64,000 bases of DNA from Candidatus Iainarchaeum sp. (GTDB taxonomy: Archaea; Iainarchaeota; Iainarchaeia; Iainarchaeales; UBA10191), in contig JAUSFL010000044.1 of assembly GCA_030649735.1 (NCBI GenBank), positions 14,038-78,037 on the forward strand, written 5' to 3'. Below, in pieces: positions 12,766-57,048 of this stretch. The notes below the pieces were generated by a model that worked only from the letters and a program-made list of their open reading frames with translations, searched no databases and was not told the origin of the DNA. The position numbers and the translations under genes are program-made. The stretch's first letter is position 1. Every line of letters begins with the position of its first letter.

Positions 12766-12821
12766 AATTGACCAAAATTTTAAGGAAATTCTTGTTTATA
12801 ATGGTTTTCAGGGAAAAAGCC

Positions 12822-13046: not shown

Positions 13047-13112
13047 AAACCCCTAATCAAACAGGCAAAACAAATATAATAATGTTTTTTTGCAAAAAAA
13101 CAGGCTGGGGAT

Positions 13113-13388: not shown

Positions 13389-13401
13389 GGGGCGGTTTTG
13401 A

Positions 13402-13773: not shown

Positions 13774-13823
13774 AGTCTTGAAAGCCTTATTAACCACTTT
13801 CGACTTTTTTCTTTAGGTCTAAA

Positions 13824-26910: not shown

Positions 26911-26921
26911 AACTTTAGAAA

Positions 26922-27356: not shown

Positions 27357-27358
27357 AA

Positions 27359-34106: not shown

Positions 34107-35192
34107 TCATGAATTCCTGACATACTCCAACGACAAAATGCCGTTAAGTTTTGGGGTTTCTGGATTCCTAATATTTTCCCCTTTAGGCGTATCAGTGCTA
34201 CCCTTCAGCACATCTCTGTCTGTGCTGAATCGAGATATGCCTTGGCGATACAAACTTGCAATATTGAATCCTGCGTTTGCATCGGCATTCTCAACCACCC
34301 CACATTTCGTGCAGTGGAATTCTTTTAGTTTTCTGTTCCTTGCTTCTATATGACCGCACTTACTACACCTTTGCGAAGTATATTGCGGTTCAACATAGGC
34401 AACAGGCACTCCGAACTTTTTGGATTTGTATTCTATCATTTTTTGCAACTGATAAAAACTCCAAGAGTTTATGGAATACCTCTGCTTTCTTCTCATTTTT
34501 GTAGTCTTTCGAATATCTTTCAATTCTTCAAGTACTATAATTGCTTTGCTATTTTGTGCTTCATCAATCAATTTCTTGCTTATCTGGTGATTAATATTCC
34601 TAATGATTCTGCTCTCTCTATCTTTGATTTTCTTAACAAGAGAATGCTTGCCATTCTTTTGAAGTGACCGTCTTATGTTTTTATATTTTGTGTGAATATG
34701 ATTGCACTTCTTACCTAGCTTAAGCACTTTTCCAGTATCAATATTTGAAGCTACAAGGACATGCTTAATTGTATTTCTATCCACACCAATCACTTGCTTT
34801 GGTTTGTATTGACAAGGTTCTTCGTATGAATATGACACATAAGCAAAAGTCTCCCCAATTTCAACTTGGTTTATCTTCTTAAATGAAATATTAAAGCGAA
34901 TTGGAAGTGTTAATTTCAGACAAGGTATTATTATCTCTTTTTTTGTGAATCTAATTCCTTGAGAAGGAACAGTCAGTTTTACTGAATTTACAGTTTTGAT
35001 TGTTTTATTTTTGGCATACTTTCGGAGGATTTGGTTGGCAATCACTGATTTCAAGCCAATATGTTTTACATCTTTGCTTGATAATGTTCTCTCTCTTATT
35101 GCATACTCAGCTATTTTCTTTGCCAAGCTAAGTTCTCTGCTAAAGTTCTGATAATGCTTTATTTTGAGAGTCAATATCAAAAAAGACCACAA
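34107..35192 (-). CDS. tnpB: TnpB (IS200/IS605 OrfB-family), solitary
   Basis: RuvC-I IGVDRN, E in IVLEELK, zinc finger CSKCGH...CTKCG. Only 21 nt separate its stop from the convergent ldcA stop. Confidence 0.85.
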   Translation of the reverse strand: MWSFLILTLKIKHYQNFSRELSLAKKIAEYAIRERTLSSKDVKHIGLKSVIANQILRKYAKNKTIKTVNSVKLTVPSQGIRFTKKEIIIPCLKLTLPIRFNISFKKINQVEIGETFAYVSYSYEEPCQYKPKQVIGVDRNTIKHVLVASNIDTGKVLKLGKKCNHIHTKYKNIRRSLQKNGKHSLVKKIKDRESRIIRNINHQISKKLIDEAQNSKAIIVLEELKDIRKTTKMRRKQRYSINSWSFYQLQKMIEYKSKKFGVPVAYVEPQYTSQRCSKCGHIEARNRKLKEFHCTKCGVVENADANAGFNIASLYRQGISRFSTDRDVLKGSTDTPKGENIRNPETPKLNGILSLEYVRNS

Positions 35193-37063: not shown

Positions 37064-37116
37064 AAAAACTTGTTTTTTAACAGTTTCCTTCCACTATTTT
37101 TTTGAAAAGAACCGCT

Positions 37117-37189
37117 AGCCCCGTAGTATAGTGGCCAAGTATGCCGGGCTTTGAACCCGTTGACGGGAGTCCGAATCTCCCCGGGGCTA
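37117..37189 (+). tRNA. tRNA-Gln (anticodon UUG)
   Basis: Acceptor AGCCCCG/CGGGGCT, anticodon loop CTTTGAA, T arm GGGAG-TCCGAAT-CTCCC, discriminator A, no encoded CCA. Confidence 0.8.
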
Positions 37190-37253
37190 TTAGCCAAAAG
37201 TTAGTAGCCTCTTTCCTCGTTTCTTTTAAAGTCCGAGGAAGGAGGTTATTAAC

Positions 37254-38525
37254 ATGGAAGAAAACGTTTTCGACCCGCATGGTTTGACCAAGCGAATGGA
37301 AGCAGAATTACGAAAGATTTCCTTGCTTCCAGAACCCAATAAATCTCTAATTCTGGATTTTTTGCACAATTACAGGTACAAAAAGAAGTCTTTGAGCTTG
37401 GCCAGGCGTTGTCGTTTGGCAAGCCAGTTTCACTTTTTTGCCAAGCTTTCAGGAAAGCCTTTGAATCCTTTTAGAGAACAGGATGCTCGAAGCTTGGTTG
37501 GCTTGATTGAAAGGTATGAGAATTCTCGAAAGCCTTATTCTTTGCATACTTGGAAAGAAATCGTAAAGAATGTTAAGATTTGGGTTAAATGGGTTAATCC
37601 TGAAGACTACCCTAACGTTTTGTTGAAGTGTAAAGATGTTTTAACAGTCCAAAACCCTTACTCAGACCCTAAAAGAAAAGCCAGTCTTGAGGATTTCTTG
37701 ATTACTGACGAAACCTTCCTGAAGCTTTTGAATGTAGCCAAAGACCAACAAAAAGCCATTCTAGCCATTGGATTTGGCTGCGGTTCAAGAACTGGAGAGC
37801 TCTTGGGTTTGCGTAGAAAAGACTTGAAATTCAATCCTGACGGAACAATATCGCTTTCTTTTCTTGAAAGCAAAACTTTTCCCCGAGAAAATATTTTATT
37901 AAGTCCAGACTTATCCTGTTACGTGCGAGAATGATTTGAAAAAAGCCCGTTGAAAAGCCAGAATGACTTCTTTTTCTGCACTGTCAACGGCCCGCCAAAA
38001 CCACTATCTCAAAACGCTCTTGGAATAATCCTAAAACGCCTGGCTGTCAAAGCCGGCTTAGGAAAATGGAAGAAAGTCAAGTCAAGCAATGGCATTTGGT
38101 ATTCTCACTATCAAGGCCAAAGAATCTATTTCACTAAATTCCGGCGTTCTGCAGCAACTTGGGCTTTAAAAAACTTGAAAAGCCACGCCTTAGCTGGCAA
38201 AAGAATCTGGGGTAACGAAGCTTCAAGCATGATTAAAATTTACTCTGGATTAGTTTCTGAAGACGCTAACGAAGCTTACAGGGAAGCTTTAGGTTTAGCA
38301 CAACCAACTCAAGTCGAAAACATTCTGAAGCCTAAAACCTGCTTCAAATGCCATACAATGCTTTCTCCAACTCAAAGCCTTTGCCCAAACTGTAAAATAG
38401 AAACAGACACTTCAAAATTAATAGATACTCAATTACTGAAAGAAGCAGAAATGACAGCCTTAAGGGAAGAAATGAAAATGCTCCAAACAGCACTAGCGCA
38501 AATAACCCTAAAAATGCAAAGTTAG
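37254..38525 (+). pseudogene. int: Tyrosine recombinase/integrase interrupted by one in-frame TGA (37932-37934); N- and C-parts in the same frame
   Basis: Core-binding N-domain; catalytic box GCGSRTGELLGLRRKDL (Arg) upstream of the stop; KFRRSAATW and KIYSG (Tyr) downstream. Junction reads YVRE*FEKSPLKSQ; the stop is a single transition from TGG (Trp). Strong SD AGGAGGT 8 nt upstream. Confidence 0.75.
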
Positions 38526-38532
38526 GCACTAC
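38522..38532 (+). repeat. Dispersed element copy (11/12) supplying the TAG stop of the integrase
   Basis: CAAAGTTAGGCACTACG; the stop codon is at 38523-38525. Confidence 0.7.
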
Positions 38533-38785
38533 GCCGGAACTAAAAAAGCAATAAAAAAGCTTCAAAAGCTAAGAAAAACAGTAAAAATAATGATTGCGCC
38601 AATCAAAGCAAAATAATGTTACAAAAAAAGGAATACGAGCTGAAAGAAACAACCTATTGGTTGAAAGGAGGGAAAATCCAGCTAAAAATTTCCCCCGAAT
38701 AAAAGATTATTCTTAGAGTGTGGATCCAAATCAATAAGCTCGCTCATTAAATCTTCAATTTTTTTGACAATCATTTTCAAGATTA

Positions 38786-39691
38786 TTATTGATTCCATTT
38801 CCTTTGCGTTTCTATTTTAGCGTGTAGTTTAAACTTTTTTCTGAATTGATTAATTTTTTCTTGAAAATCTTTTGGGTAGGTCTTAGATTTCTCGTTGAAT
38901 AAAAATTTTAAATATCCTACTTTTTGTGGATTTACTCCTATTAATTGGGCCAGTGTAAAGTCACACATGAATGGGTTATCGGATGCTAGCGCCCAATTGC
39001 AATTTATTTTGGTTCCAAACAGCGGTCCATTCCCCTCCATGCCTAGATAGCCATCAATTATTGAATAATTTGGATACGCTTTCTTGATTAAACTGGCCAA
39101 ATTATAATGAATTAATTTAATACTTTGCAAGTATTCTTTTCCTTTTAAGGTGTGTTTTCTCAAGCCATGAATTTTCACTCGATCTTCTGGTTTGATTAAT
39201 GGCATTACAAAGTTTTTGGTTGAACTTGTCATAATAGCGTAATCATGTGACTTTGGAACTGTCATTGATATCAAAATATCATAATCTAGAAAAGTCCGAT
39301 TAATTCTAACTTTATCCCACCCATAAATGGTTTTAACTGGGTGGGAGAAATATTCTGAGTCCAAATTTAGATCAACAAAAGATGCTCCGTGTTTTTGAAT
39401 GATGTCCCAAACGCCAAATTTTTTGAGTGTTGATTTGGTAGTAAGCCCTTGTTGCCAGGACTCGCCGCTTCCTTCAGCCACTGTAATTTTAGATGGGTGG
39501 TGTTCTGTTAAGATTTGTAAAACAGTGTCTAGCGATTCTGCAGAGGTATCTGCTAGTTGGGTATTGCAAGAAGTAAAATTTGGTTTTATAAAAATAGATT
39601 TATCCCGTATTTTGTCGTCTGAGAATAGTTTTGGAACTATTGAACGTATGTTTTCAACTCTGTTTTTGCCGCCAGTCAACAAAATTTTCAT
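38786..39691 (-). CDS. DUF362-family protein
   Basis: IFIKPNF... and overall DUF362-like pattern; first gene of a minus-strand pair with the kinase. Confidence 0.45.
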   Translation of the reverse strand: MKILLTGGKNRVENIRSIVPKLFSDDKIRDKSIFIKPNFTSCNTQLADTSAESLDTVLQILTEHHPSKITVAEGSGESWQQGLTTKSTLKKFGVWDIIQKHGASFVDLNLDSEYFSHPVKTIYGWDKVRINRTFLDYDILISMTVPKSHDYAIMTSSTKNFVMPLIKPEDRVKIHGLRKHTLKGKEYLQSIKLIHYNLASLIKKAYPNYSIIDGYLGMEGNGPLFGTKINCNWALASDNPFMCDFTLAQLIGVNPQKVGYLKFLFNEKSKTYPKDFQEKINQFRKKFKLHAKIETQRKWNQ

Positions 39692-40371
39692 GCATTCACT
39701 TTAATTAATTTTGGGTGGTTATAATTTGCATTGTTTATAACTAAATTGGCTGCTTTTTTTGGGTGGTTTTTTCTAAGGTACCATTGTTGGGCTGGTTTGT
39801 GCCAATGGTTCCACCGAAATATTACTTCTTTTCTGGAAATTTTTCTCACAATTGGCTCTCTTTTAAGTTGCCGTTCAAACGAGCATGAAAATGGAATGTC
39901 TAAAAAAATTCTGAACGCCGGTATCTTGCTAAATTCCTTTTTTGATAGAAAAACGCCCTCAACGATTAAAATTGATTCTTTTTTGACTTGTATTTTTTCC
40001 TTTTTTTTCTTGGTTTTATTGTTAAATATTAAGGATTCTTTTTCTAGTTTGCCTTTCTGAATGAATGTTGTTAGAATTTTTTTTATGGTTATAAAATCAA
40101 ACCATTGGCTATAATATGCTTTCCAGGAAGATTTTCCGTTTCTGATTCTCTTGGTTTCGGTTTTCAAAAAGTCATCCACCCGTAATTGGGTGGATTTTAT
40201 CGCCTTGCTGTAAAGGCTTTTTTTTAGATTGCGGGCAAAGTATGTTTTTCCGGATGCGTCTATTCCGTCCACAAAAATAATGGTTTTCCCACTCTTCAAA
40301 AATGAGTTTACTACCATTGTCATTATTGAATCTGTTTTCCTATTTGGCCAATTCTGTTGGGGCATAGACAT
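39688..40371 (-). CDS. P-loop nucleoside/nucleotide kinase-like protein
   Basis: Walker A VDGIDASGKTYFARNL, ~200 aa. True start probably a few codons downstream of 40371. Confidence 0.5.
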   Translation of the reverse strand: MSMPQQNWPNRKTDSIMTMVVNSFLKSGKTIIFVDGIDASGKTYFARNLKKSLYSKAIKSTQLRVDDFLKTETKRIRNGKSSWKAYYSQWFDFITIKKILTTFIQKGKLEKESLIFNNKTKKKKEKIQVKKESILIVEGVFLSKKEFSKIPAFRIFLDIPFSCSFERQLKREPIVRKISRKEVIFRWNHWHKPAQQWYLRKNHPKKAANLVINNANYNHPKLIKVNA

Positions 40372-40405
40372 TTAAAGAATATAATCATTAATAAAAGCTT
40401 CCGAA

Positions 40406-41749
40406 TTGAATGATTCTATGCAAAAAAGATTGACGGAGAAAATCATACAAGTTGTTCTGAAAGATTTGATTCATCAGCCCACCAATAGTAAAAGCCGCGC
40501 TGAATTGATTTTAGACTGCTTGTTTGAAGGAAGAAAGGGGATTAGCTGGGATTTTCGTTGCGATTTGTATTTCTTTTTTCTGAAAACGATTGTTACTAAA
40601 ATGATGAAAGAGAACCGGGAGCTCATTGATACTGTGAAAAAAGGTTACTGCGATTATTCTATTTTTAAAAAAGCGCTTAACAAGGCCCTCAAACTTTATC
40701 TTACCAGTATTGTGGAATATGGAATCACAACTCCCCAAAAATTTAGCTTTCCATTCCTTGTGGAATTTGAACTCACTAATAAGTGCAATTTGGCGTGTAA
40801 ACATTGTTATGCAAATGCTGGTAAAGAGCTGGCTGATGAAATTAATACTCAAGAAGCAAAAGAAATCCTTAACCAGCTAAACAATATAGGTGTTCCAATA
40901 GTCTGTTTCACTGGCGGAGAGCCCTTTCTAAGGGCAGACTTCTTTGAATTACTTGAACACTCTAATAAAATAGGCCTCTTGACTGTTATAACTAGTAATG
41001 GAACCTTGATTACAAAGGAAAGTGCAGCCAGACTCAAAGAATTGCAAGTGGAATATATTAGAATCAGCTTGGACAGTGCAACCCCTAAAACGCACGATTG
41101 GCTAAGGGGAATGCCAGGAGCCTACGAGCAAACCATTCAAGGAATAAAAAATTCTATCCAAGCTGGAATCAAAACCGGAGTCACTACAGTTTTGATTCAA
41201 GAAAACTCGTCAGAAATGGAACAAATGATAGAACTTTTGAGCCAATTAGGGTGTTCAGATTTTACTGTGTGCAGGTTGTTTCCATTAGGTAAAGGAAGTT
41301 CGTTGCAAAATAGTTTGCTTAACAAAGAAGAATTGAGTAAAGTGGAATCTCGCATTTCGGCAAAAGCAAAAGAGCACCCTAATCTTTTGATGAATCCTTT
41401 GACGCTGGAAGGCAGAATCCATTCAAAAAAAGACATGCTACGGAAAATAACAGACATGATTGGAGGCTGCCCTGCCGGATTAAACGTATGCGCCATTACT
41501 CCTAAAGGGGAAATAAAGCCTTGCGCGCTAATGTCTATAACCGCGGGGGATTTTAAAAAACAAAAGTTTGAAGAAGTCTGGAAAAACAGTCGGTTATTTA
41601 ATGAACTTCGGGATCGCTCGCTGCTTAAAGGAAAATGTTCCGCTTGCGAATTCAAATTTTCGTGCGGTGGTTGTCGTGCAACCGCATATGGTTATACTGG
41701 AGATTACCTTGAGACAGACCCCATCACATGCATGTTACGTATAAAATGA
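40406..41749 (+). CDS. Radical SAM enzyme with C-terminal SPASM domain and ~115-aa N-terminal extension
   Basis: CNLACKHC (CxxxCxxC) and a SPASM Cys cluster (CPAG...C...CSACEFKFSCGGCRA). Confidence 0.8.
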   Translation: MNDSMQKRLTEKIIQVVLKDLIHQPTNSKSRAELILDCLFEGRKGISWDFRCDLYFFFLKTIVTKMMKENRELIDTVKKGYCDYSIFKKALNKALKLYLTSIVEYGITTPQKFSFPFLVEFELTNKCNLACKHCYANAGKELADEINTQEAKEILNQLNNIGVPIVCFTGGEPFLRADFFELLEHSNKIGLLTVITSNGTLITKESAARLKELQVEYIRISLDSATPKTHDWLRGMPGAYEQTIQGIKNSIQAGIKTGVTTVLIQENSSEMEQMIELLSQLGCSDFTVCRLFPLGKGSSLQNSLLNKEELSKVESRISAKAKEHPNLLMNPLTLEGRIHSKKDMLRKITDMIGGCPAGLNVCAITPKGEIKPCALMSITAGDFKKQKFEEVWKNSRLFNELRDRSLLKGKCSACEFKFSCGGCRATAYGYTGDYLETDPITCMLRIK

Positions 41750-41770
41750 CTCCGCTAATGGGATGATAAT

Positions 41771-43123
41771 GTGAAAAGAATACAGAACCTGATTGGAAGC
41801 GCTATAATCAAATCCGCGTTATTTGATTTGTCCAAACCAATAGGGGTTTTAAAGAAAAGCCGTGCTGAACTCATTTTAGACAGACTCTTTGAAGAAAAAA
41901 AAGAGATTGATTGGGACATTAAATGCCGAATTTATTTTTTTCTCTTGAATCAAATAATGGCTAAAATGATTAAAGAAAATAAGATCACGATGCAAACTGC
42001 AAAGAAGTTTTTTCAGGATTACCCTATTTTTAGAAGAATACTCAATAAAACGCTTAAACTATTTCTTCAGAGCATAACTGAATACGGGATTACTATGCCG
42101 CAAAAACTTAGTGCGCCATTATTGGTAGAATTTGAGTTGACTAATAAATGTAATCTTGCATGCAAACACTGTTATGCAAATTCTGGAAGCAAATTTGCAA
42201 AAGAACTGGATTTAAGAGAAGTAAAAGAAATCCTGAACCAAATCAACCAAGCCGGCGTTCCTTTAGTGTGCTTTACTGGCGGCGAACCACTTCTAAGGCC
42301 GGACTTCTTTGACATTTTGAGCCATGCTAAGCGCATTGGTCTTGTTACTATTGTTACAACCAATGGGACTCTAATCACAAAAGAAAAGGCCAGAAAGTTC
42401 AAAGAGCTTGGAACAGATTATATCCGCATTAGTTTGGATGGGGCAAGTATAAAAACACATGATTGGCTGCGTGGAATTCCTGGCGCGTATAAAAGAACCG
42501 TTCAAGGAATCAGAAATTCCATTGAAGCAGGAAACAAAACCGGAATAGGCACAGTTCTAATTCAAGAAAACGTGCATGAACTTGAAAACTTGATTGATCT
42601 GGCAGCTCAATTAGGTTGCACTGACATAAACGCAATTCCGCTCATTGAAAGCGGTCGGGCAAAAAGCACTTTGAATAAAGAGATTCATGAAATGAGCAAT
42701 GAACAAAAAAAGAAAAACGAAGAGTTGATAGTTGCAAAAGCCAAAGAATATGAGGGAAAAATGCTGCTTAATTTTTTGGATTTAGATCATATTCGCAGGG
42801 TAAAAGGTTCATCAAAGCATTTTGTTGGTTGGGCTCAAGGTGGTTGCGCTGCAGGGCGAACAGTTTGTGTCATAAACCCCAATGGAGAAATTCGGCCATG
42901 TATCACTCTTAGATTGAATGTCGGAAGCCTGCAAAAACAAAAGTTTGTAAAGATTTGGAAAAATTCCAAAATAATGGAAGAACTTAAAAACCGTTCTCTT
43001 GTAAAAGGAAGTTGCGGCAAATGTGAATCCAAGTATACTTGTGGGGGATGCCGCGCTGCAGCTTATGATAAATTTGGGGATTATCTTGAATCAGACCCTG
43101 GTTGCTATGTGCGATACTTTTGA
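41771..43123 (+). CDS. Radical SAM/SPASM enzyme, paralog of 40406-41749
   Basis: Same architecture (CNLACKHC; C-terminal CGKCESKYTCGGCRA); recognisably similar along its length. Confidence 0.8.
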   Translation: MKRIQNLIGSAIIKSALFDLSKPIGVLKKSRAELILDRLFEEKKEIDWDIKCRIYFFLLNQIMAKMIKENKITMQTAKKFFQDYPIFRRILNKTLKLFLQSITEYGITMPQKLSAPLLVEFELTNKCNLACKHCYANSGSKFAKELDLREVKEILNQINQAGVPLVCFTGGEPLLRPDFFDILSHAKRIGLVTIVTTNGTLITKEKARKFKELGTDYIRISLDGASIKTHDWLRGIPGAYKRTVQGIRNSIEAGNKTGIGTVLIQENVHELENLIDLAAQLGCTDINAIPLIESGRAKSTLNKEIHEMSNEQKKKNEELIVAKAKEYEGKMLLNFLDLDHIRRVKGSSKHFVGWAQGGCAAGRTVCVINPNGEIRPCITLRLNVGSLQKQKFVKIWKNSKIMEELKNRSLVKGSCGKCESKYTCGGCRAAAYDKFGDYLESDPGCYVRYF

Positions 43124-43145
43124 GATTGGGAAAAAGCGTGATTGA

Positions 43146-44360
43146 ATGGAATTATATATTGAAAGAGCAAAAGGAGTTTGGCTATACGGCCAGAATAATG
43201 AAAAGTATTTGGACGCGTGTGCTGGGACGTTTAACATAATTCTTGGGCATGGGGAAGAACGAGTAATGGACGCCGTCCAAGAACAATTGGGTAAAATGGT
43301 TCAATATTCTTCTTCTTGGAAAAGCCATTTAGTTGAAGATTTCTCAGCAAACCTTTTGTCAATATCTCCAAAAAATTTGGACTCCTGTTTTTGTAAAGTT
43401 ACTGGGGGAAGTACTGCAAACGAAGTGGCCATTAGAATGTTGGCAAAAAATTTAAATAGAAAAAAAGTGATCTTGATGGAAGGCAGCCATCATGGGAATA
43501 CAATTTTTCTTTCAAACAATCAATCTGTTTTGAATGAAAATAATAAAATCTTTGTGAAAATGCCTAAACTTTCCTTTCCATCCATGTCTAGCATGAATGA
43601 TTCGGCATGGGCAAAATCCGCTGCTGATTTGGACTTTTTATTTAAAAAACACTCAAAAGAAGCGGCTTGTTTCATAATTGAACCAATTCAAGGCCGAGGT
43701 GGAAATCTTGTACCCCCAAAGTCATTTTTTAAAACGGTTTCAGAATCAGCTTCAAGGTATAGTATACCCATAATTGCCGATGAAGTGCAAGTGGGTGTTG
43801 GCCGAACTGGAAAGTTTTTTGGAAGTGAAGCTGTTGGCTTGTTACAACCAGATGTAATTGTCTTGGCCAAAGGAATCACTGGGTGTGGTTTTCCTTTAGG
43901 CGTAATTTTATATGACTCAACGTATGGAAAATTGGAATCAGCAAAAGACGGTTTTACTTTTGGATCCAATCTAGTTTCAGTTGCGGCAGCCAAAAAAACA
44001 GTGGAAATAGTGAGCGATCCAAAGTTTTTGCAGGAAATCCAATTTAAAGGAGAATATTTGCGAGCCAAGCTTGAAAAGCTGCAACTTGAGCACAATTCTT
44101 TGGAAGATATTCGCGGCATTGGGTTGTTTTTTGGCATAAAACTGAAGTCTGGAAAAGAATTTCCAAGCACTGAACGCATGATTGCAGTTCTTGCTAAAAA
44201 TGGGGTAATCTGCCGGTCAAGCGAAAACGTTCTTAAAATTAGACCGCCCCTTGTAATAACTTTGGAACAAATTGATTTTTTATGTAAATCATTGGAGGTG
44301 GCTCTGAATGAAACAGAAAGAAAAACTAAATTGGCAAATGGAATTCTTGCGCATGGGTAA
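43146..44360 (+). CDS. Class-III (omega) PLP-dependent aminotransferase
   Basis: IADEVQVGVGRTGKFFG, PLP-Lys region VLAKGITGCGFPLG, ~400 aa. Confidence 0.8.
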   Translation: MELYIERAKGVWLYGQNNEKYLDACAGTFNIILGHGEERVMDAVQEQLGKMVQYSSSWKSHLVEDFSANLLSISPKNLDSCFCKVTGGSTANEVAIRMLAKNLNRKKVILMEGSHHGNTIFLSNNQSVLNENNKIFVKMPKLSFPSMSSMNDSAWAKSAADLDFLFKKHSKEAACFIIEPIQGRGGNLVPPKSFFKTVSESASRYSIPIIADEVQVGVGRTGKFFGSEAVGLLQPDVIVLAKGITGCGFPLGVILYDSTYGKLESAKDGFTFGSNLVSVAAAKKTVEIVSDPKFLQEIQFKGEYLRAKLEKLQLEHNSLEDIRGIGLFFGIKLKSGKEFPSTERMIAVLAKNGVICRSSENVLKIRPPLVITLEQIDFLCKSLEVALNETERKTKLANGILAHG

Positions 44361-45297
44361 ACTCCTTCGAAAAGAAATCACTTCATTGAAACAGTTTAAC
44401 GAACGGCAAAAAATTTCTGGAATTAGCAAATCAGGAGATCCCCAATTTAAAGTGGATAATATTGCTGAAAACTTTCTTTTAAAACAAATAAAAAAGATTT
44501 CCAAAAAAACAAGCATTGCTTATTTTTCAGAAGATAAAGGCCTTGTTCGTTTTGCAAAAAACCCAGAGTATTTGCTGATTTGCGACCCAATTGATGGATC
44601 AAGACCGTTCTCAGCTGGTTTTGAGTCAAATAACTTTTCGATTGCACTTGCAGAAACAAATGGTAAAGACCCCACGGATTTAACATTTGCTCAAATAGTC
44701 TCGGGTTTTTTATTGGAACTGAAAACCGGAGAATATCTTTTTGCGGAAAAAGGAAAAGGAGTTATTCAAAACGGAGCTAAATTTCAACCTAAACCCACTC
44801 GTTTTAATAGCAATAACTTGAACCAATTGTTTTGGAGTTTTGAATTCAATGGAACCCCCTCAAGAATTGTTCATGAAATACTGGGTGATTTGATTGATAC
44901 TTCAGCAAATAAGGGGGGCATTTTTGTTTTCAATTCTGGAAGTTATTCAATTTCAAGAGTGATTACTGGCCAACTTCACGCATATATTGACATTGGAAAT
45001 TTGGTTTTGAAGAAATTTCCCGAACTTGAAAAAGAATTCAAATCTGTAGGTTCGGGATCAATTCTGCACTTGTTCCCGTATGACATTGCAGCCTCCTACA
45101 TTATTGCAAAAGAAGCGCACATAAGCATTGCAGATGCTGCAGGAAATTCATTGGAATCTCTTTCCCTAACAGATTTATCTGCACAAAATCAAACTTCTTG
45201 CGTATGCGCGCTGAATGAAAAGCTATCCAAGAAACTAATTAACGAGATTTCTGTAAACCTAGAAAAAAAACGAAAACAAATCGCTGAAGAACAGTGA
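44308..45297 (+). CDS. Inositol-monophosphatase-family (IMPase/FBPase-like) phosphatase
   Basis: LICDPIDGSRPF (DPIDGT-type motif). Start probably 44338 or 44353. The 3' end overlaps the convergent gene by 59 bp. Confidence 0.7.
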   Translation: MKQKEKLNWQMEFLRMGKLLRKEITSLKQFNERQKISGISKSGDPQFKVDNIAENFLLKQIKKISKKTSIAYFSEDKGLVRFAKNPEYLLICDPIDGSRPFSAGFESNNFSIALAETNGKDPTDLTFAQIVSGFLLELKTGEYLFAEKGKGVIQNGAKFQPKPTRFNSNNLNQLFWSFEFNGTPSRIVHEILGDLIDTSANKGGIFVFNSGSYSISRVITGQLHAYIDIGNLVLKKFPELEKEFKSVGSGSILHLFPYDIAASYIIAKEAHISIADAAGNSLESLSLTDLSAQNQTSCVCALNEKLSKKLINEISVNLEKKRKQIAEEQ

Positions 45298-45874
45298 ATA
45301 AAGCAGCTATTGCGAGTAGAAGCAACACAACGCCAGCCATTTGGCTATCGAATAACAGCAAGATAAAAATTAGAACGAATAACATGCATCTTTCTCCTCT
45401 TTGAATTAACCCATGCATATTGTCAAGTTGTTTTCGCCAGTTAGGGTTGCTGTATGATGCATGCGACTTGGCAAAACTGGTTAAAAAAACACCCAAAATG
45501 CAAGTAAAAATTATATAATTCCAAGAGATAAAAAAACCAAAAAGGTTGACAGAATTCAAATTTAAACTCCACAATCCAACTAACAAAAGAAAGTCAACCA
45601 GGATATCAGATAACCCATCAAAATAATCGCCAAAAGGAGTTTGTTTTTTCAAATATTTGGCTATACTCCCATCAAAAATGTCAAACAGAAAAGAAAGCGA
45701 AAAAAGAATACCTCCTAAAAGAATTTGCTTCTCAACTAAGCTTAGAAAACCGCTAAACCCAAGCACAACTGCCAGTAAAGTCCATTGATTAGGGGATAAA
45801 GGCACGATCGAAAGCATTCTCCCAACAGATTGTTCTAACTCAACCAATTGCTTATCAAATAACCCTTTAATCAT
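45239..45874 (-). CDS. CDP-alcohol phosphatidyltransferase
   Basis: DGSIAKYLKKQTPFGDYFDGLSD matches D-G-x2-A-R/K-x8-G-x3-D-x3-D; multiple TM helices. Confidence 0.8.
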   Translation of the reverse strand: MIKGLFDKQLVELEQSVGRMLSIVPLSPNQWTLLAVVLGFSGFLSLVEKQILLGGILFSLSFLFDIFDGSIAKYLKKQTPFGDYFDGLSDILVDFLLLVGLWSLNLNSVNLFGFFISWNYIIFTCILGVFLTSFAKSHASYSNPNWRKQLDNMHGLIQRGERCMLFVLIFILLLFDSQMAGVVLLLLAIAALFTVLQRFVFVFFLGLQKSR

Positions 45875-46622
45875 TTGTAATGCCGCCCAAAAACAAAATA
45901 AATTCTGGAATTTTAGTAATCTTTGGAAATAGTTGCCCTGTCTTTTGTTGGTATATTACATATTCTTTCCCAAATCTTTGAATCAAATCTTTCTCCTCAA
46001 TTGAAATCCACATCAAAGCAGTTAAGCACACTGCTAAAAACGATAATAAACCAAATAAGCTCGGACTAATAATGAAAAGTCCAAAACAAACCACGACTGC
46101 TATTCCCAAAAAGGGATGGCGAATAAACCGAAAAACCGAGTTCTGCTTCAATTTAAAACTAGAAGGAAAAAATGAGCCCATAACATATATTTCTTCAACA
46201 GAAAAGACTTTTACTGCCTTCTTCCAAATTAACAATGCAATCAAGAATAAGATAAAACCCGCAACGAAATTCACTGGGTGAATTTGTTTTATATTTCCAG
46301 CAAAAAAAGGAATTAGTAAAGCAGAATACCACAAACACATTCCAAAAAAGAAAAAAGGCAGTGCATGACGATAATTTAGTCTTTGATCGCCCGTCTTTTT
46401 TGAAAAACCATGCGCTTTCTTCCAGAGCAAAAAACTAAGCGCGCAATAAACTAACGATTGTAAAAACGGTATAAAATCAAATTTTATAATCGCGTTTGGT
46501 ACAAATGCAAATAGAAAAGCAAAAATAAAAAGCGCAAACAACAAAAAGTAATATCTTGGAGGAGAAATCTCCGGAACTAAATCAAATAAACGCAATTTTT
46601 CCTCACGAATATTCACGGGCAA
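45867..46622 (-). CDS. ICMT/PEMT-family membrane methyltransferase (isoprenylcysteine carboxyl / phospholipid methyltransferase-like)
   Basis: RFIRHPFLGIA...IEEKDLIQRFGKEYVIYQQKTGQLFP signature; polytopic. Confidence 0.65.
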   Translation of the reverse strand: MPVNIREEKLRLFDLVPEISPPRYYFLLFALFIFAFLFAFVPNAIIKFDFIPFLQSLVYCALSFLLWKKAHGFSKKTGDQRLNYRHALPFFFFGMCLWYSALLIPFFAGNIKQIHPVNFVAGFILFLIALLIWKKAVKVFSVEEIYVMGSFFPSSFKLKQNSVFRFIRHPFLGIAVVVCFGLFIISPSLFGLLSFLAVCLTALMWISIEEKDLIQRFGKEYVIYQQKTGQLFPKITKIPEFILFLGGITND

Positions 46623-47614
46623 ATAACCACCTTTACCGCAGTTGATTCTCGTGCAAACCTTCTTGATGCAAAATCATATCCAAGAACTTCAAAAGCTTCC
46701 CGATAATCTTTCAAACCAAACTTGTGAGTAATAATGTCTTTGCCCCTAATTCTTGGCAGTAACTTGATCGCTTGTTTAAATGTACCAGAGTCCATATTGA
46801 CTCCAAGAATATCCACGTTCTTTTGAGCAATCAAAAAAGGTTCAATCTTCTCAACATGCCCTGGACTCATTCCAAATAACACTAACTTGCCAGCAGGCTT
46901 GACCAAGCGAACCCCCAGCTCAAACGCTTGCCCAGAAGAATCAATCACAAAATTAAAACCATTCGATTCATCCCCCTGGCAAATTGTTATCCCAAACTTT
47001 TGAGCAAAAGCACACCTAAACTCGGACTTTTCAACGCCAAAAACTTTTATTCCCCTCAATCTAAAGAGTTCAGCCCAAATCAACCCAGTAGGACCAAGAC
47101 CAATAATACACGCTGTTTGATTCTTTTTGATGTTAAGCCGATTAAAACCATTCAATATACACGCCAATGGCTCAACCAAAGTAGCTTCTTCAAAGCTAAT
47201 ATTATCAGACAACTTATACACATTACTTTCTCTGATTTTCACAAAAGCAGCAAATGCCCCGTTGATATTAACACCCAACTCACCATTTCCGCCAGTACCT
47301 AAATTTTTACACAAATTCTGCTTTCCATCAAGACAAAACTCACAATTCCCGCAAGTTAGTGTTGGATCAGCAACTACCATATCCCCAATTTTAAATCGCC
47401 TTGCTTTATTCCCTGTTGAAGTAATTACGCCGGAAAATTCATGACCCAGAACAATATTATCTAAACAACCCATAATCCCTGAAACAATCTTTAAATCAGA
47501 CCCGCAAATTCCGCAACAATTAACCCTAATCAGAACCTCATCTGGTAAAACGGCTGGCATGGGAAATTGGCTCACTTCCAGACTACTCTTTTTAGACAAA
47601 CACAATGCATCCAT
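46613..47614 (-). CDS. Zinc-dependent medium-chain alcohol/polyol dehydrogenase
   Basis: GHEFSGVI, Cys-rich structural-zinc loop (CGNCEFC), Rossmann IGLGPTGL. Start taken at MDALCL; the ORF track extends to 47668. Confidence 0.82.
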   Translation of the reverse strand: MDALCLSKKSSLEVSQFPMPAVLPDEVLIRVNCCGICGSDLKIVSGIMGCLDNIVLGHEFSGVITSTGNKARRFKIGDMVVADPTLTCGNCEFCLDGKQNLCKNLGTGGNGELGVNINGAFAAFVKIRESNVYKLSDNISFEEATLVEPLACILNGFNRLNIKKNQTACIIGLGPTGLIWAELFRLRGIKVFGVEKSEFRCAFAQKFGITICQGDESNGFNFVIDSSGQAFELGVRLVKPAGKLVLFGMSPGHVEKIEPFLIAQKNVDILGVNMDSGTFKQAIKLLPRIRGKDIITHKFGLKDYREAFEVLGYDFASRRFARESTAVKVVICP

Positions 47615-48033
47615 AAACATGGAAATAAGGTTGTTACTGAATAAAAAAATAGCACATTCTAATGCCAAAATTAGTGTATAATGATTTGATAATTATTATA
47701 GTGGGTCTTTTAGATATCTTCTTTCAAAATAATCAATTAATTGTAAATTACAAGTTTAGAACTATGATTACATTTGTTTATGATAAAAAATTGTTAAAAC
47801 ATCAACTGAAAATCCAAAATATGATTAATTAAGTCTGGATTGAACTTCGAATTTCTTGTATATTCTATGGGTTTTTAAGTGTAGGAATTGCCTTGCTTTT
47901 AGCTGATTTCTAGTAATCCTTGTTGTTTTTTCTATTAATTAGACTAGATTAGCTTTATTCTTGGCAAAAAGAAATAATTAAGCTTATTTGCTGGTTTTAG
48001 TTTTTGCAGTTTCTTTTTTTCTGGGTTATTTTT

Positions 48034-48044
48034 TGTAGTGCCTA
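48034..48044 (-). repeat. Dispersed element copy (11/12, reverse) in the repeat-dense non-coding block
   Basis: TTTTGTAGTGCCTAT. Confidence 0.65.
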
Positions 48045-48198
48045 TGTCTCTATTTTTGCTTTTGTTTTCGGGACATTTACAAGACATTTTTTGGGTTTGC
48101 GGGACAATTAATTGGCAATTTTATAGTTGATTTTTTTGATTCGTATTTTTTTTGCCGACATTTTCCCGACATTTTTTCACTTTTCCCGACACCCATTT

Positions 48199-48210
48199 TG
48201 TAGTGCCTAA
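48199..48210 (-). repeat. Dispersed element copy (exact, reverse) in the repeat-dense non-coding block
   Basis: TTTTGTAGTGCCTAA. Confidence 0.8.
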
Positions 48211-48296
48211 TGCTGCTTTCAATTTTCCTATTTTCTGCTTAGTGCCATTTTTGTGCCATTTTTTTACTTTGCGTGTCATTCAAAGCTTGCATCTTC

Positions 48297-48307
48297 TGTA
48301 GTGCCTA
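48297..48307 (-). repeat. Dispersed element copy (11/12, reverse) in the repeat-dense non-coding block
   Basis: CTGTAGTGCCTAT. Confidence 0.65.
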
Positions 48308-48482
48308 TGCTCCGCTTTATTCACTTGCTTGCCAGTAACTGAGTTAACTCATGCTTAAATAATTCAATGTAGAAGGTATGTCTAGAGAGTTTTCAAAACT
48401 GCTTTATAAAAGCAGAAGTAAGGACTTCTCATGAGAAACCCGACAACGACAATAAGAAGGCCGGAACAGAAATTAATGCAAG

Positions 48483-48671
48483 GTGAAGAAATTGGAACTA
48501 CAGCAAACTCTTACAGTTAGGAAGAATGAGCAAATGACGGCAAAGCAAGTGGCCTTGTTGCTGGCGAGAAAGACAGATTTTGAGTTAAAGCGAGAGTTTC
48601 CGGTTTTTTGGGAATTGCTTGCAATAAAAAGCAAAAGTTGGAAAAGTGTTGATGATGAGTTTGAATATTGA
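48483..48671 (+). CDS. Small hypothetical protein
   Basis: 62-aa ORF at the edge of the repeat block. Confidence 0.3.
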   Translation: MKKLELQQTLTVRKNEQMTAKQVALLLARKTDFELKREFPVFWELLAIKSKSWKSVDDEFEY

Positions 48672-48882
48672 GTTGAGAATACCAAAGCAAGTAGTGCCTA
48701 ACTGTTTTCTCTGCCTCTCAAACAAAAGAAAACGCAAAAAAATGGTGTTCCGTACAACCCAAAGAAGATGGGTTTGCAAAGAATGCCTTGACGCGCTTGG
48801 AGAAAACCAAATACAACAAATGCTTGAAAAAATTCCTTTGGCTGAAGATATAATATTCAGAAAGCCAAGCATCAATTTTTAG
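48646..48882 (+). CDS. Small zinc-ribbon protein
   Basis: CFLC...CKEC. Confidence 0.35.
   Translation: MLMMSLNIELRIPKQVVPNCFLCLSNKRKRKKMVFRTTQRRWVCKECLDALGENQIQQMLEKIPLAEDIIFRKPSINF
48691..48701 (-). repeat. Dispersed element copy (11/12, reverse) between small ORFs of the element
   Basis: AAGTAGTGCCTAACTG. Confidence 0.65.
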
Positions 48883-48890
48883 TGATTGCT

Positions 48891-49241
48891 TCAGACGCAG
48901 ATTATTTTTACTGTTTTTAAGTCTATTAGCGGGGTTCTTTTTTCTGTTTCGTTGATGATTTCGAACATTTTTTCAACGTTTTCTGGAACGTTTGCTTCAT
49001 TGATGTCTTTTTTTGAAGTGTTTTTTCTTGTTAGGTATTCTTGTGCGAAAGAGCGGGATATTGACTTGACTTTTTTGAAGTCTATGGTTATTTGTTTCTC
49101 TTTCATTTTCTCTAAATCATCAAAGAAGTTGCTGACTAGGTCTCTTAAAGCAAGGTTTTCGGAAATTATTTTTGCAATTTCTATCTTACTTGATAAAGTC
49201 ATAAATGTCCACTTCTTTTGCCGGATAGGGTATTCTGACAC
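48891..49241 (-). CDS. STAS-like (DUF4325-like) small protein, partner of the upstream GHKL ATPase
   Basis: ITIDFKKVKSISRSFAQEY pattern, 116 aa; overlaps the ATPase 3' end. Confidence 0.4.
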   Translation of the reverse strand: MSEYPIRQKKWTFMTLSSKIEIAKIISENLALRDLVSNFFDDLEKMKEKQITIDFKKVKSISRSFAQEYLTRKNTSKKDINEANVPENVEKMFEIINETEKRTPLIDLKTVKIICV

Positions 49242-49995
49242 TTATTAGGGTGCCTTGTAACCTATAATTGTCTCGGAGTTTATATAATTTTGTTGGTTCA
49301 TTGCCTTTAAAGTAGGCTGCCCCATTTCCTGACACAATAAGCAGCTCTCCCGAAAGGCCTTTTGTGAAAAGCTTTAAGTTTGAGCCTAAGCCAAAACCAC
49401 GCTCTTTCCCTTTGGTTGAAAGGCCATTAATTGCCTGGATTATGCTTTCAGCGTCCTCAAAAACCATTCCTTTTTTTGCAAAACTACCGGGAATTGTTAT
49501 TCCGTCATCAAAAAAGCATATTTCAACAAATCCTTTCTTTTCATACTTTTGGGCCATTACAAAAGCATTCTTGAATTCTGAATGCTGATAAATGTTATCA
49601 ACAAGCTCGTTTATCAAATATTTGAAAGCATTTTCCCCACCATACTCTTTGCCATTATTGTGCAGTTTGAAAATCTGTTCTAGAAACTTTTCTGAATCCT
49701 TTTCTGCAACTTTTGGCGGCAGGCCTATTATTGGAATGTAAGTTTTTAATCCATTCTCAACCTTAAACTCACCAATAACCAAAGAAATATAGTTTGCGGC
49801 ATTCTGATTTGCTGGGGGAACATACTTGATTTTCTTGCTGTTTTCCTTAATGAACACGCCTAAAGGAAGCAAGGTTGTGGGATAAAGCCAGCTAACAGTT
49901 TGCAAATTAAGAACTTTTGTTTCAATGCTGGAATTCTTAAAATTACAGAAAATAAGGTAATTGTTCAATTGATTAGGAAACTCCAACTCAGCCAT
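49186..49995 (-). CDS. GHKL-superfamily ATPase (histidine-kinase-like ATP-binding domain) with N-terminal unknown region
   Basis: N box ELVDNIYQHS, G1 DDGITIP, G2 GFGLGSNL. Confidence 0.6.
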   Translation of the reverse strand: MAELEFPNQLNNYLIFCNFKNSSIETKVLNLQTVSWLYPTTLLPLGVFIKENSKKIKYVPPANQNAANYISLVIGEFKVENGLKTYIPIIGLPPKVAEKDSEKFLEQIFKLHNNGKEYGGENAFKYLINELVDNIYQHSEFKNAFVMAQKYEKKGFVEICFFDDGITIPGSFAKKGMVFEDAESIIQAINGLSTKGKERGFGLGSNLKLFTKGLSGELLIVSGNGAAYFKGNEPTKLYKLRDNYRLQGTLISVRIPYPAKEVDIYDFIK

Positions 49996-50232
49996 AAAGC
50001 AATTATCGCTAAAAAGAGAATAAAAACCTAAGCAGGCGAGAATTCCACTGGAAAAAAGCGCCAGAAACGTTTTACGCAGAAAAAATTATTAACAACTTAC
50101 TACTTCTATGTCAACTACTAAAGGATAAATAAAAGAAGCGAGTTTTAAGCATTGAGGGAATTCTTACTTTTGACCTTTATTCTCCCCGGGGCTATTAAGA
50201 CCTGGGGCTTTTTTGAACAGCAGTTCAAAATT

Positions 50233-50387: not shown

Positions 50388-51263
50388 GTGAAAAGCATGG
50401 TTAAGGAAAACAAGTTTTGGATAATTCCTGCGGCTGTGATTCTTGCGGCATTGATTGTTGCAATTGGATTGAATTTCAGCTCGCTGACAGGCAAAAATGC
50501 GGAAGTTGCTCCGCAGATTCAAGTGCCGAACTATTTGACAAAGGCGCAAAACAATTATAATGCGCAAGATTTTATTCCGGCAAGCGATGGAGCAATCAGT
50601 TTTGCGGCTGACAATTCAGGCAATCAGGCAAGATTGCTTTCGGTTTCTGGAACAGTCTTGAAAACCACGGCTCCAGACAAGGCAACAGTGGTTTTTAGCG
50701 TTGAAACAACGGATAAGCATGCTTCAAAAAGCCAAAGCGACAATGCAGAACTTGCCGCCAAAGTAATGGCTGCCTTGAAAAATGCGGGAATTGCGGACAA
50801 GGACATCAAGACAGTCTCTTACAACTTGAATGAAGAATTCCAATGGAATGAGACTTTGAGAAAGTCTGAAAGCATTGGATACAGGACAACAAACAGCGTT
50901 CAAGTTTCATTGACTGACCTGTCAAAGACTGGAAGCGTCATTGATGCCGCAGTGCAGGCTGGAGCAAACAATGTAAGCTCTGTAAGCTTTGGGCTTTCTT
51001 CGGACAAGGAAAGCGCGTTGAAAATTCAGGCATTAAAAGAAGCTGCTGAAGCAGCCAAAGTCAAGGCAGAAAGCATTGCTTCAGGGCTTGGAATCACTGT
51101 GGGACAGGTTTACAGCGCGCAGGAAAGCTCGAACTATTACATTCCAAACTACAAGAATTACGCAATGGAATCGGCAGCGCCTTCAGCGGGAGTTTCTACT
51201 CCAATAACTCCAGGCGACATTGAGTTTTCTGCAACAGTCAGCGTTCAATTTGAAATCCAGTAA
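50388..51263 (+). CDS. SIMPL/DUF541-family secreted protein
   Basis: N-terminal TM/signal, two-repeat SIMPL pattern (VSYNLNEEF...; GITVGQVYS...). Confidence 0.7.
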   Translation: MKSMVKENKFWIIPAAVILAALIVAIGLNFSSLTGKNAEVAPQIQVPNYLTKAQNNYNAQDFIPASDGAISFAADNSGNQARLLSVSGTVLKTTAPDKATVVFSVETTDKHASKSQSDNAELAAKVMAALKNAGIADKDIKTVSYNLNEEFQWNETLRKSESIGYRTTNSVQVSLTDLSKTGSVIDAAVQAGANNVSSVSFGLSSDKESALKIQALKEAAEAAKVKAESIASGLGITVGQVYSAQESSNYYIPNYKNYAMESAAPSAGVSTPITPGDIEFSATVSVQFEIQ

Positions 51264-56752: not shown

Positions 56753-57048
56753 TCTAAAACCACTTTTGGGCCTTTGAAGTAGCCATTTTTTGAATGCTTT
56801 GCCAATGAAAGCGCTTCCTCTTGTGAAATGCATTCTCCCGCATTGTCTTTCCTGAAAACATTCTTTACAGGCAATGGCTGGAAGGAAGGCTTTGCTTTTG
56901 AAACATCGACTTCATCAAGCCTGTCAAAGACTTCAAGAATTTCTTTCATTTGCGAAAGGAACTTTTTCACCTCGCTTTCCGAAAGCTTCAGGCGCGAGTT
57001 TTTCGCGACTTTCAGGATTAATTCTTCATCAAGCTTTAATTTAGGCAT
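56749..57048 (-). CDS. gatC: Amidotransferase subunit C
   Basis: 99-aa GatC-like protein; stop overlaps the gatA start (ATGA). Confidence 0.75.
   Translation of the reverse strand: MPKLKLDEELILKVAKNSRLKLSESEVKKFLSQMKEILEVFDRLDEVDVSKAKPSFQPLPVKNVFRKDNAGECISQEEALSLAKHSKNGYFKGPKVVLE

Follow-up and report, generated by a model that had tools for sequence, protein, structure and literature searches.

A rare nine-gene cluster with a probable role in membrane-lipid tailoring on a tRNA-Gln-integrated island of a Candidatus Diapherotrites archaeon

In this study we analyzed 64,000 nucleotides of contig JAUSFL010000044.1 (assembly GCA_030649735.1; the whole stretch is referred to below as the window). 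The host is Candidatus Diapherotrites (DPANN) by annotation of the metagenome-assembled genome (MAG). A block of nine genes (38786-47668), carried on an island of ~13 kb integrated at a tRNA-Gln gene, was found to be the main feature of interest. Based on family assignments and gene neighborhoods, the block is probably a membrane-lipid module. Our fuller proposal is that it would be a self-contained, horizontally acquired lipid-tailoring module of nine genes on the ~13-kb tRNA-Gln element, with a pathway running from a kinase to a pair of radical SAM (rSAM) enzymes; we put this slightly short of even odds, at roughly 0.45. The nine genes are:

38786-39691, minus strand: DUF362 protein, 301 aa, LarA-like fold; Pfam 108.5 bits; orthologues in loci L003/L005
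39688-40371, minus strand: P-loop kinase of the PRK/uridine-kinase family, 225-227 aa; Pfam PRK 37.6 bits
40406-41749, plus strand: rSAM-A, radical SAM/SPASM protein with a Gms-type N-terminal helical domain (Pfam)
41771-43123, plus strand: rSAM-B, paralog of rSAM-A with the same architecture (Pfam)
43146-44360, plus strand: class-III (omega-type) aminotransferase; Pfam Aminotran_3 258.9 bits
44308-45297, plus strand: phosphatase of the IMPase/FBPase family, 329 aa; Pfam Inositol_P 57.6 bits
45239-45874, minus strand: CDP-alcohol phosphatidyltransferase (CDP-OH-PT), AIPS-like, below the equivalog cutoff; Pfam 55 bits
45867-46622, minus strand: integral-membrane SAM-dependent methyltransferase of the ICMT/PEMT class; Pfam PEMT 40.7 bits
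46613-47668, minus strand: Zn-dependent medium-chain dehydrogenase (ADH), polyol/threonine-dehydrogenase type; Pfam ADH_N and ADH_zinc_N; probable start near 47620

An earlier, sequence-only reading of this DNA had described the nine open reading frames (ORFs), and their coordinates, strands and gene content all stood. It had also called for searches with profile models. Pfam families were assigned to 9/9 proteins, every one above the gathering score (DUF362, PRK, two Radical_SAM plus SPASM, Aminotran_3, Inositol_P, CDP-OH_P_transf, PEMT, and ADH_N plus ADH_zinc_N); the Radical_SAM core of both rSAM proteins scored about 110 bits. Gene calls on an independently assembled contig (L001) place the probable starts of four proteins slightly inside the maximal ORFs (ADH 335 aa, rSAM-A 443, kinase 225, methyltransferase 249). 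The genes are tightly packed: kinase and DUF362 overlap by 4 nt, aminotransferase and phosphatase share an overlap, and the methyltransferase gene overlaps both of its neighbors, CDP-OH-PT and ADH. The convergent overlap of 59 bp between the phosphatase (44308-45297, plus) and CDP-OH-PT (45239-45874, minus) genes is as the sequence-only reading gave it.

The same nine genes recur in two more independent metagenomic loci, L003/L004 and L005, at 35-65% amino acid identity. Both L003 and L005 were reached via the closest relatives of rSAM-B (51-65% identity). Gene order in L003/L004 is identical to that of the window; L005 is rearranged, with the rSAM pair moved behind DUF362. In an all-against-all comparison that took in every ORF of at least 25 aa, exactly nine genes were common to the three loci, all other matches being shadow ORFs inside them, and no flanking gene or small ORF was conserved across the three. 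Each of the three copies has kept its catalytic motifs intact. Because these nine genes, and only these, recur in independent loci, one of them rearranged, the comparison indicates that they form a real functional module and that their arrangement is not due to chance. The possibility that the genes would fail to co-occur in related elements, named beforehand as a test of the operon, is thus not what the neighborhoods showed. The convergent phosphatase/CDP-OH-PT overlap was kept as well (59 bp in the window, 44 bp in L003 at 12522-14088, 44 bp in L005 at 3411-4956). Its retention despite the rearrangement in L005 suggests a constraint, for example a shared terminator or antisense coupling.

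Judged from the sequence collections searched, the module is very rare. Homology searches returned only these loci and two short contigs. No orthologue of the rSAM pair was detected among 185,579 species-representative genomes (GTDB), where the best match (40% identity) belonged to the general Gms-like family. An exhaustive HMMER search of 1.84 billion 50%-identity representatives found a single other representative of CDP-OH-PT at E <= 1e-30. This search superseded a word-index search with the same protein, in which a single homologue came up while the orthologues of L003 and L005, at 50% identity, went undetected. A metagenome scan for more clusters yielded, among the matches listed, generic Gms-like loci only.

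Head-group enzymes

The sequence-only reading proposed that an alcohol phosphate is attached to a CDP-activated donor and then dephosphorylated. CDP-OH-PT (Pfam PF01066, 55 bits vs a cutoff of 22) carries the motif D-x2-DG-x2-AK-x8-G-x3-D-x3-D (FDIFDGSIAKYLKKQTPFGDYFDGLSDILVD) with every Asp and Gly present; relative to D-x2-DG-x2-AR-x8-G-x3-D-x3-D, Arg is replaced by Lys in all three cluster orthologues. The best NCBIfam model is that of archaetidylinositol-phosphate (AIP) synthase, AIPS (NF040950), at 92.1 bits, which does not reach the cutoff of 180; PIPS (57) and DIPPS (56) follow. The nearest neighbors of the protein (about 30-35% identity) also score best on the AIPS model, then on PIPS and DIPPS. 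Solved relatives are IPCT/DIPPS (4mnd, the best, E = 1.3e-5), the mycobacterial PIP synthase and AF2299. By sequence, CDP-OH-PT is placed at the fringe of the branch that uses alcohol phosphates, specifically inositol phosphate (AIPS/PIPS/DIPPS). The phosphatase (PF00459, 57.6 bits vs a cutoff of 27) is closest to the archaeal IMPase/FBPase MJ0109 and keeps the motifs SE(D/G)KG, DPIDGS and YDIAA in all three loci. The proposed order of attachment and dephosphorylation fits these assignments, as the relatives of CDP-OH-PT use inositol phosphate. It also fits the context of a distant CDP-OH-PT homologue from the word search (P0002), whose gene adjoins those for MIPS, an IMPase and a second CDP-OH-PT.

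Like the archaetidylinositol pathway (MIPS, then AIP synthase, then AIP phosphatase) and bacterial PIPS, the cluster has the transferase motif D-x2-DG-x2-A(R/K)-x8-G-x3-D-x3-D, with AIPS as the best model, and an IMPase-family phosphatase encoded alongside. Unlike them, the CDP-OH-PT of the window forms a tiny isolated subfamily below the AIPS cutoff and the cluster has no MIPS; it adds ADH, an aminotransferase, a kinase, a membrane methyltransferase, two rSAM proteins and DUF362.

IMPase is the last step in the synthesis of di-myo-inositol phosphate, and the cluster might make a variant of this soluble phosphodiester solute: a DIPPS-like transferase would join two polyols, the phosphatase would dephosphorylate the product, and ADH, aminotransferase and methyltransferase would decorate it. 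IPCT/DIPPS is the best solved match of CDP-OH-PT, and the DIPPS model ranks third in NCBIfam. However, AIPS scores far above DIPPS (92 vs 56 bits), and among the nine proteins Pfam found no cytidylyltransferase or NTP-transferase domain. The methyltransferase belongs to an integral-membrane class, and the Gms-like rSAM pair and the GGR-associated DUF362 described below point to lipid substrates. A solute product is accordingly quite improbable.

The remaining head-group enzymes were assigned at the same level. The kinase scored 90.7 bits with the NCBIfam PRK07667-like model, below its cutoff, and matched 1rz3 in the PDB; its Walker A motif GIDASGKT is conserved across the loci. ADH matches sorbitol, iditol, xylitol and threonine dehydrogenases and galactitol-1-phosphate dehydrogenase in the PDB. 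Its two best NCBIfam models are tied, Tdh (146 bits, cutoff 380) and IolM (146, cutoff 450), and neither cutoff was reached; the catalytic and structural Zn ligands and GxGxxG are conserved. The nearest solved structures to the aminotransferase (PF00202) are omega-, acetylornithine and polyamine transaminases, and the pyridoxal phosphate-binding elements, DEVQxGxGRTG and the LAKG lysine, are conserved. The alcohol to ketone to amine logic suggested from sequence fits these groupings, with ADH among the polyol/sorbitol/threonine dehydrogenases and the aminotransferase among the omega-transaminases.

Such logic is known from aminocyclitol formation, where myo-inositol is converted to scyllo-inosose and then to scyllo-inosamine (streptomycin pathway). 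In hopanoid metabolism the class-III aminotransferase HpnO converts ribosylhopane to aminobacteriohopanetriol. The cluster resembles aminocyclitol and aminopolyol pathways in pairing a polyol-type dehydrogenase with a class-III omega-type aminotransferase. It differs in that both proteins score far below every equivalog cutoff and no cyclase is encoded; pathways to aminocyclitol antibiotics contain a cyclase and, for the most part, DegT-type aminotransferases.

The ICMT/PEMT-like class proposed for the membrane methyltransferase was borne out by Pfam (PEMT PF04191, 40.7 bits vs a cutoff of 25) and by its sole solved relative, the archaeal membrane enzyme Ma-ICMT (4a2n, E = 8.7e-6). The ICMT equivalog was not reached (38 vs 160 bits). 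The SAM-binding C-terminal motif RHPxY...EE..L..FG..Y..Y is conserved.

The chemical logic of the sequence-only reading is therefore supported at the level of protein families, not at that of a particular polyol. In agreement with its claim that no characterized pathway combines such enzymes, no description of one was found in the literature searched. It had further pointed to N-methylated aminopentanetetrol (APT) phospholipids, which occur in Methanospirillum and some halo(alkali)philic methanogens. The logic of polyol-phosphate attachment, dephosphorylation, amination and N-methylation would suit APT, and in the literature searched no assignment of APT biosynthesis was found, as it had supposed. 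However, no cluster gene specifies a C5 polyol, the rSAM pair lacks an orthologue in the GTDB species representatives, and the CDP-OH-PT subfamily has a single other 50%-identity representative among 1.84 billion. Since the module is absent from species-representative genomes, the known APT producers, which are cultured methanogens, do not use it. The APT idea thus found no support, and we regard it as very improbable.

Radical SAM paralogs and the DUF362 protein

The two rSAM proteins share 54% identity and always occur as a pair. The CX3CX2C motif and seven SPASM cysteines are invariant among the cluster rSAM proteins. They had been likened to BtrN-type dehydrogenases of aminocyclitol pathways, an assignment that did not hold: BtrN (4m7s) matches at E = 7.9e-6 over the core only, and where the BtrN type has a twitch domain with one auxiliary cluster and no N-terminal domain, the cluster proteins carry seven cysteines in a full SPASM domain and an N-terminal domain of 115 residues. 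In the AlphaFold2 (AF2) model of the rSAM protein (pLDDT 89.5), helices span residues 2-105 and precede the barrel. The NCBIfam profile is sub-threshold (AhbD/TIGR04053/NirJ2) and the same as that of Gms-like proteins. The heme enzymes AhbC, AhbD and NirJ gave the top NCBIfam scores, well below cutoff, and were rejected as candidates; they are without the N-terminal domain.

Gms (glycerol monoalkyl glycerol tetraether, GMGT, synthase) cross-links the two biphytanyl chains within glycerol dialkyl glycerol tetraethers (GDGTs; PMC11186832, PMC11214058). It combines a helical domain at the N-terminus with an rSAM domain, a hairpin-containing bridging region and a SPASM domain, and it occurs in anaerobic archaea including DPANN (PMC11186832). 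Beyond their cluster orthologues, the rSAM proteins of the window match, near full length and at 30-40% identity, archaeal proteins of ~470 aa that make up a very large family. The N-terminal 115 residues are homologous to the N-domain of this Gms-like family (hhalign probability 98.5%, E = 2.7e-15). One family member, in a genome of the DHVE2 group (L068), has a B12-binding rSAM gene directly after it, and gms followed by gmm (a B12-rSAM gene) is a published arrangement (PMC11214058). Identity between rSAM-B and this protein is 35% over 425 residues (E = 9e-88). Verified Gms enzymes share 38-48% identity with one another, and on that scale we read 35% as lying within the functional spread of the family. 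All parts of the Gms architecture were found in the cluster proteins: the N-terminal helical domain, the CX3CX2C rSAM core, the bridging region and a SPASM domain of the two-cluster type. Sequence comparison thus classes the pair as Gms-type and not BtrN-type. Like Gms, the cluster proteins have the four-part domain architecture including the seven-cysteine SPASM domain; unlike Gms, which works alone, they are a tandem paralog pair within a head-group cluster.

Two accessions of the window, MDO8648012 and MDO8648013, are missing from the published Gms table. A Diapherotrites protein of 447 aa, MCD6523049.1, is on the published list of Gms homologues with 40% identity to verified Gms (PMC11186832, supplementary file 8). 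Its length fits the cluster-type paralogs (443-450 aa) and not Gms (466 aa or more). Near short bacterial rSAM homologues (L066, L069, L079, L142, L152), aminotransferase-like genes lie ~1.1-1.3 kb away, with a weak match of 23-24%; we take these to be hemL-like. A class-III aminotransferase gene beside a Gms-like rSAM gene in L125 was also set aside, as it looks like an ordinary ArgD-type neighbor.

[quoted passage not shown] The pair might then cross-link a precursor peptide whose C-terminus is converted, as in daptides, to a methylated amine. The cluster is like daptide systems in its class-III aminotransferase, which matches the daptide aminotransferase model (163.8 bits, below the cutoff of 450), and in the order alcohol, ketone, amine, N-methyl, the dehydrogenase-transaminase-methyltransferase logic of daptides (10.1101/2023.03.08.531785). 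However, the three loci have no conserved small ORF in common, and the rSAM N-terminal extension is the helical domain of the Gms family, not an RRE. The cluster is unlike daptide clusters in having no precursor peptide, no DUF-RRE protein and no M50 peptidase; the Fe-ADH/SDR of daptides is absent too, the dehydrogenase and methyltransferase being of other families. CDP-OH-PT, the phosphatase and the kinase would have no role in RiPP maturation. We rejected the RiPP/daptide explanation on the missing small ORF, the different enzyme set and the Gms-type N-domain, and consider it extremely unlikely.

DUF362 showed no sequence match among solved structures. With its AF2 model (pLDDT 82), only LarA and malate racemases were significant in the Foldseek search of the PDB (TM about 0.4-0.5). 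This structural match agrees with the Pfam clan, CL0471, that is common to DUF362 and the N-terminal domain of LarA (PMC11770544). DUF362 is thus like LarA, of the nickel-pincer superfamily of lactate/2-hydroxyacid racemases, in fold match and Pfam clan; it is unlike LarA in sequence (12-16% identity) and in length (301 aa vs about 420), and fusions with a ferredoxin domain occur in some DUF362 proteins. No larB, larC or larE genes were seen.

The neighborhoods of DUF362 genes point to rSAM and isoprenoid enzymes. In L005 the DUF362 gene overlaps rSAM-A. In six loci (L010, L012, L013, L021, L024, L105), a DUF362 gene follows a Gms-like rSAM gene within 20-116 bp, in translational coupling; the six belong to one distinct subclade, from Bathyarchaeia/Nitrososphaerota/Thermoproteota, which could represent another uncharacterized lipid system. 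An example is L012 (rSAM gene 9752-11251, DUF362 gene 11241-12200), where the neighbors include UbiA, CobS-like, MobA-like and three glycosyltransferase genes. The CobS/CobY-like, glycosyltransferase and aminotransferase genes by the Bathyarchaeia rSAM-DUF362 pair were judged probably to belong to cobamide salvage or to be unrelated, and were not used. In a bacterial locus (L078, 2798-6464; Latescibacterota MAG), a fusion of DUF362 with a 2x[4Fe-4S] ferredoxin has as neighbors a lipid phosphatase of the PAP2 type and a Gms-like rSAM protein with the N-terminal domain. Bacterial Gms-type enzymes may be related to bacterial membrane-spanning lipids.

The closest relative of the DUF362 protein outside the cluster (46% identity) is in L089 (GCA_975848055.1). 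There (8788-10945), the DUF362 gene shares 8 nt with the 3' end of a gene for geranylgeranyl reductase (GGR), and the GGR passes TIGR02032 (218 bits vs a cutoff of 158.8). Divergently upstream lie genes for a small P-loop kinase, a 315-aa protein of unassigned family and a 345-aa radical SAM protein. This locus is a second association of DUF362, kinase and rSAM genes, here in a lipid-saturation context.

Proposed pathway and its weighing

From the family assignments we infer every step and substrate of the following pathway. The P-loop kinase would supply a phosphorylated polyol or cyclitol, which the AIPS-like CDP-OH-PT would join, as the alcohol phosphate, to CDP-archaeol; the IMPase-type phosphatase would then take off the terminal phosphate. 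Before or after attachment, the polyol-type Zn-dehydrogenase and the omega-type aminotransferase would convert a head-group hydroxyl to a ketone and then to an amine. The ICMT/PEMT-class methyltransferase may methylate the lipid-bound product at N or, alternatively, at O of a phosphate or carboxyl group. Finally, the Gms-type rSAM pair, aided by the LarA-fold DUF362 protein, would act on unactivated carbon, most likely by forming or altering a C-C bond in the isoprenoid chains and less likely in the head group. As product we expect a rare and unusual polar lipid that probably bears amino and methyl groups.

The assignment to lipids is drawn from five lines of evidence, which we count as independent: an AIPS-type CDP-OH-PT with an intact motif; an integral-membrane methyltransferase translationally coupled to CDP-OH-PT and ADH; an rSAM domain architecture in common with the Gms family; the overlap of the closest extra-cluster DUF362 relative with a GGR gene; and the position of DUF362 next to Gms-like rSAM genes in six archaeal loci and L078.

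Several points weigh against the proposed pathway. The curated NCBIfam equivalog cutoff was reached by 0/9 proteins, so that specific protein names cannot be given and all substrates are deduced; the product and the activities rest on family assignment. No MIPS or other sugar-phosphate cyclase and no CDP-archaeol synthase is encoded in the cluster; the 64-kb window has no MIPS, and outside the island it holds housekeeping genes. That the reference family used for the rSAM pair is Gms is itself something we infer, from architecture, taxonomy and gms-gmm gene order. In a rough neighbor-joining distance tree, the seven cluster rSAM proteins formed a separate deep clade that was not nested in Gms. 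Their core-plus-bridge region falls 17-21 residues short of that in 120 Gms-like proteins. Analysis of the AF2 model by itself with DSSP revealed no clear beta-hairpin in the bridging region. In Gms, this beta-hairpin gates the lipid pocket (PMC11186832). A clade of their own and a shorter bridging region mean that the cluster rSAM proteins may act on something other than lipid tails. As for DUF362, guilt by association suggests that it would work alongside isoprenoid-chain enzymes, possibly as a redox or hydride partner.

The shorter bridging region bears on another explanation, in which the cluster makes a lipid-anchored or secreted envelope component. An amino-polyol phosphate would be transferred onto a polyprenyl carrier or a surface glycoconjugate, and the rSAM pair would tailor the polyol, whether by epimerizing or deoxygenating it or by forming a ring, in the manner of aminoglycoside or calditol chemistry. 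The radical SAM enzyme Cds makes calditol (PMC13459092). Besides the ~20 residues by which the pair falls short of the Gms bridging region, the presence of the sugar- and cyclitol-tailoring enzymes BlsE, DesII and BtrN among the rSAM matches would suit such chemistry. The LarA-like fold of DUF362 suggests hydroxyl epimerization, and the CDP-OH-PT family includes enzymes with non-phospholipid acceptors. However, CDP-OH-PT has its closest relatives among the synthases of phospholipid head groups, and the N-terminal domain of the rSAM pair is common specifically with the lipid-acting Gms family. The conserved nine include no glycosyltransferase, flippase or polyprenyl-phosphate transferase. We consider an envelope component, and the tailoring chemistry that goes with it, unlikely.

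To our knowledge, the archaeal lipid-tailoring enzymes known so far are a handful (Tes, Gms, Grs, Gmm, Cds and, recently, Ted and Hgs). For many head groups known from lipidomics the genes have yet to be assigned, and the DPANN lineage is usually thought to depend on hosts for lipids. The block is a new variant on known archaeal head-group and tail-tailoring systems; a 2026 review of lipid radical SAM enzymes covers Tes, Gms, Grs, Gmm and Cds, and contains nothing like this cluster (PMC13459092). If the proposed lipid-tailoring pathway is true, the pairing of an AIPS-like transferase with two Gms-type rSAM paralogs would open up a new way of making unusual lipids, in a cluster small enough to be synthesized and expressed. 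Its location on an integrated element in a DPANN host bears on whether these archaea remodel their own membranes and on horizontal transfer of lipid traits. DUF362, a large and uncharacterized family, gains a testable context in its coupling to Gms-like rSAM genes and GGR. Counts of Gms homologues used for inferring GMGT producers may include paralogs of different function.

The most specific form of the proposal is that a DPANN archaeon makes an aminated, methylated cyclitol or polyol phospholipid, C-C modified by the Gms-derived pair with DUF362 as its obligatory partner, and that this pathway is mobile. We hold this combination to be doubtful. If true, it would give DUF362 its first function and the Gms family a new reaction type.

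The tRNA-Gln-integrated island

The block had been described as cargo of a mobile element. Integration at tRNA-Gln was borne out; mobility has to be qualified by an in-frame stop in the integrase gene. Features of the island besides the nine genes are:

37116-37190, plus strand: tRNA-Gln (TTG), the integration target (ARAGORN, Rfam)
37176-37192: attL core of 17 nt, TCTCCCCGGGGCTATTA, overlapping the tRNA-Gln 3' end (exact direct repeat)
37254-38525, plus strand: tyrosine-recombinase (integrase) gene adjoining the tRNA; one frame with a single TGA at 37932-37934
47669-48890: non-coding spacer of 1.2 kb with iteron-like short direct repeats (repeat families D1, D2, D8)
48891-49241, minus strand: DUF4325/STAS-like gene (Pfam; phrog_20761, E = 1.2e-10)
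49186-49995, minus strand: HATPase_c-like gene, 269 aa (Pfam; phrog_3364, E = 9.5e-42)
50181-50197: attR core, the identical 17 nt (exact direct repeat; ends of contig L001)

The two exact direct repeats, attL at the 3' end of the tRNA and attR, enclose ~13 kb of deviant composition (GC ~0.35 between the 17-nt repeats vs ~0.41 outside), as is characteristic of a tRNA-integrated element. Both halves of the integrase match PHROG integrase families (phrog_216: N-half positions 60-107, C-half 145-234); Pfam gave no match for this gene at E<0.01. The integrase gene is not intact, being broken by the one in-frame TGA (37932-37934). An independent Logan contig also has two separate integrase genes called, in agreement with the same stop. 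The TGA could be a nonsense mutation, leaving an immobilized island, or a read-through or recoded stop.

The Logan contig L001 (run SRR13727527) covers exactly 37135-50219 at 99.99% identity and breaks just outside both att copies. On the right flank, contig L171 stops just past the SIMPL gene (50388-51263), near attR. The contig ends at the att sites hint that the sampled population holds occupied as well as empty or excised forms.

The repeats in the spacer comprise TTTTGTAGTGCCTA in three copies, units of the type (C/G)CGACATTTT, and GGGACATTT/CCGACATTTT/GTGCCATTTTT units. A scan with Rfam gave no match in the spacer (47669-48890) and nothing relevant on the island. The spacer may serve the element as an origin of replication or as an array for protein binding. 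The overlapping HATPase-like/DUF4325 pair matches virus-associated PHROG families, typical of viral and mobile elements, and is not kept beside the cluster in L003/L005. PADLOC gave marginal matches at most on the island (a DrmA-like segment, E = 4e-6) and nothing relevant.

The island is flanked by archaeal housekeeping genes. A TnpB/Cas12f1-like gene with a TNB domain (34107-35192, minus strand) lies ~2 kb upstream of the tRNA-Gln integration site. The window has tRNA amidotransferase genes of both the GatD/GatE type and the GatCAB type (25561-29248; 53379-56833). A GatB-like protein of 643 aa in the window also carries a tRNA_edit (YbaK-like) domain, an unusual fusion.

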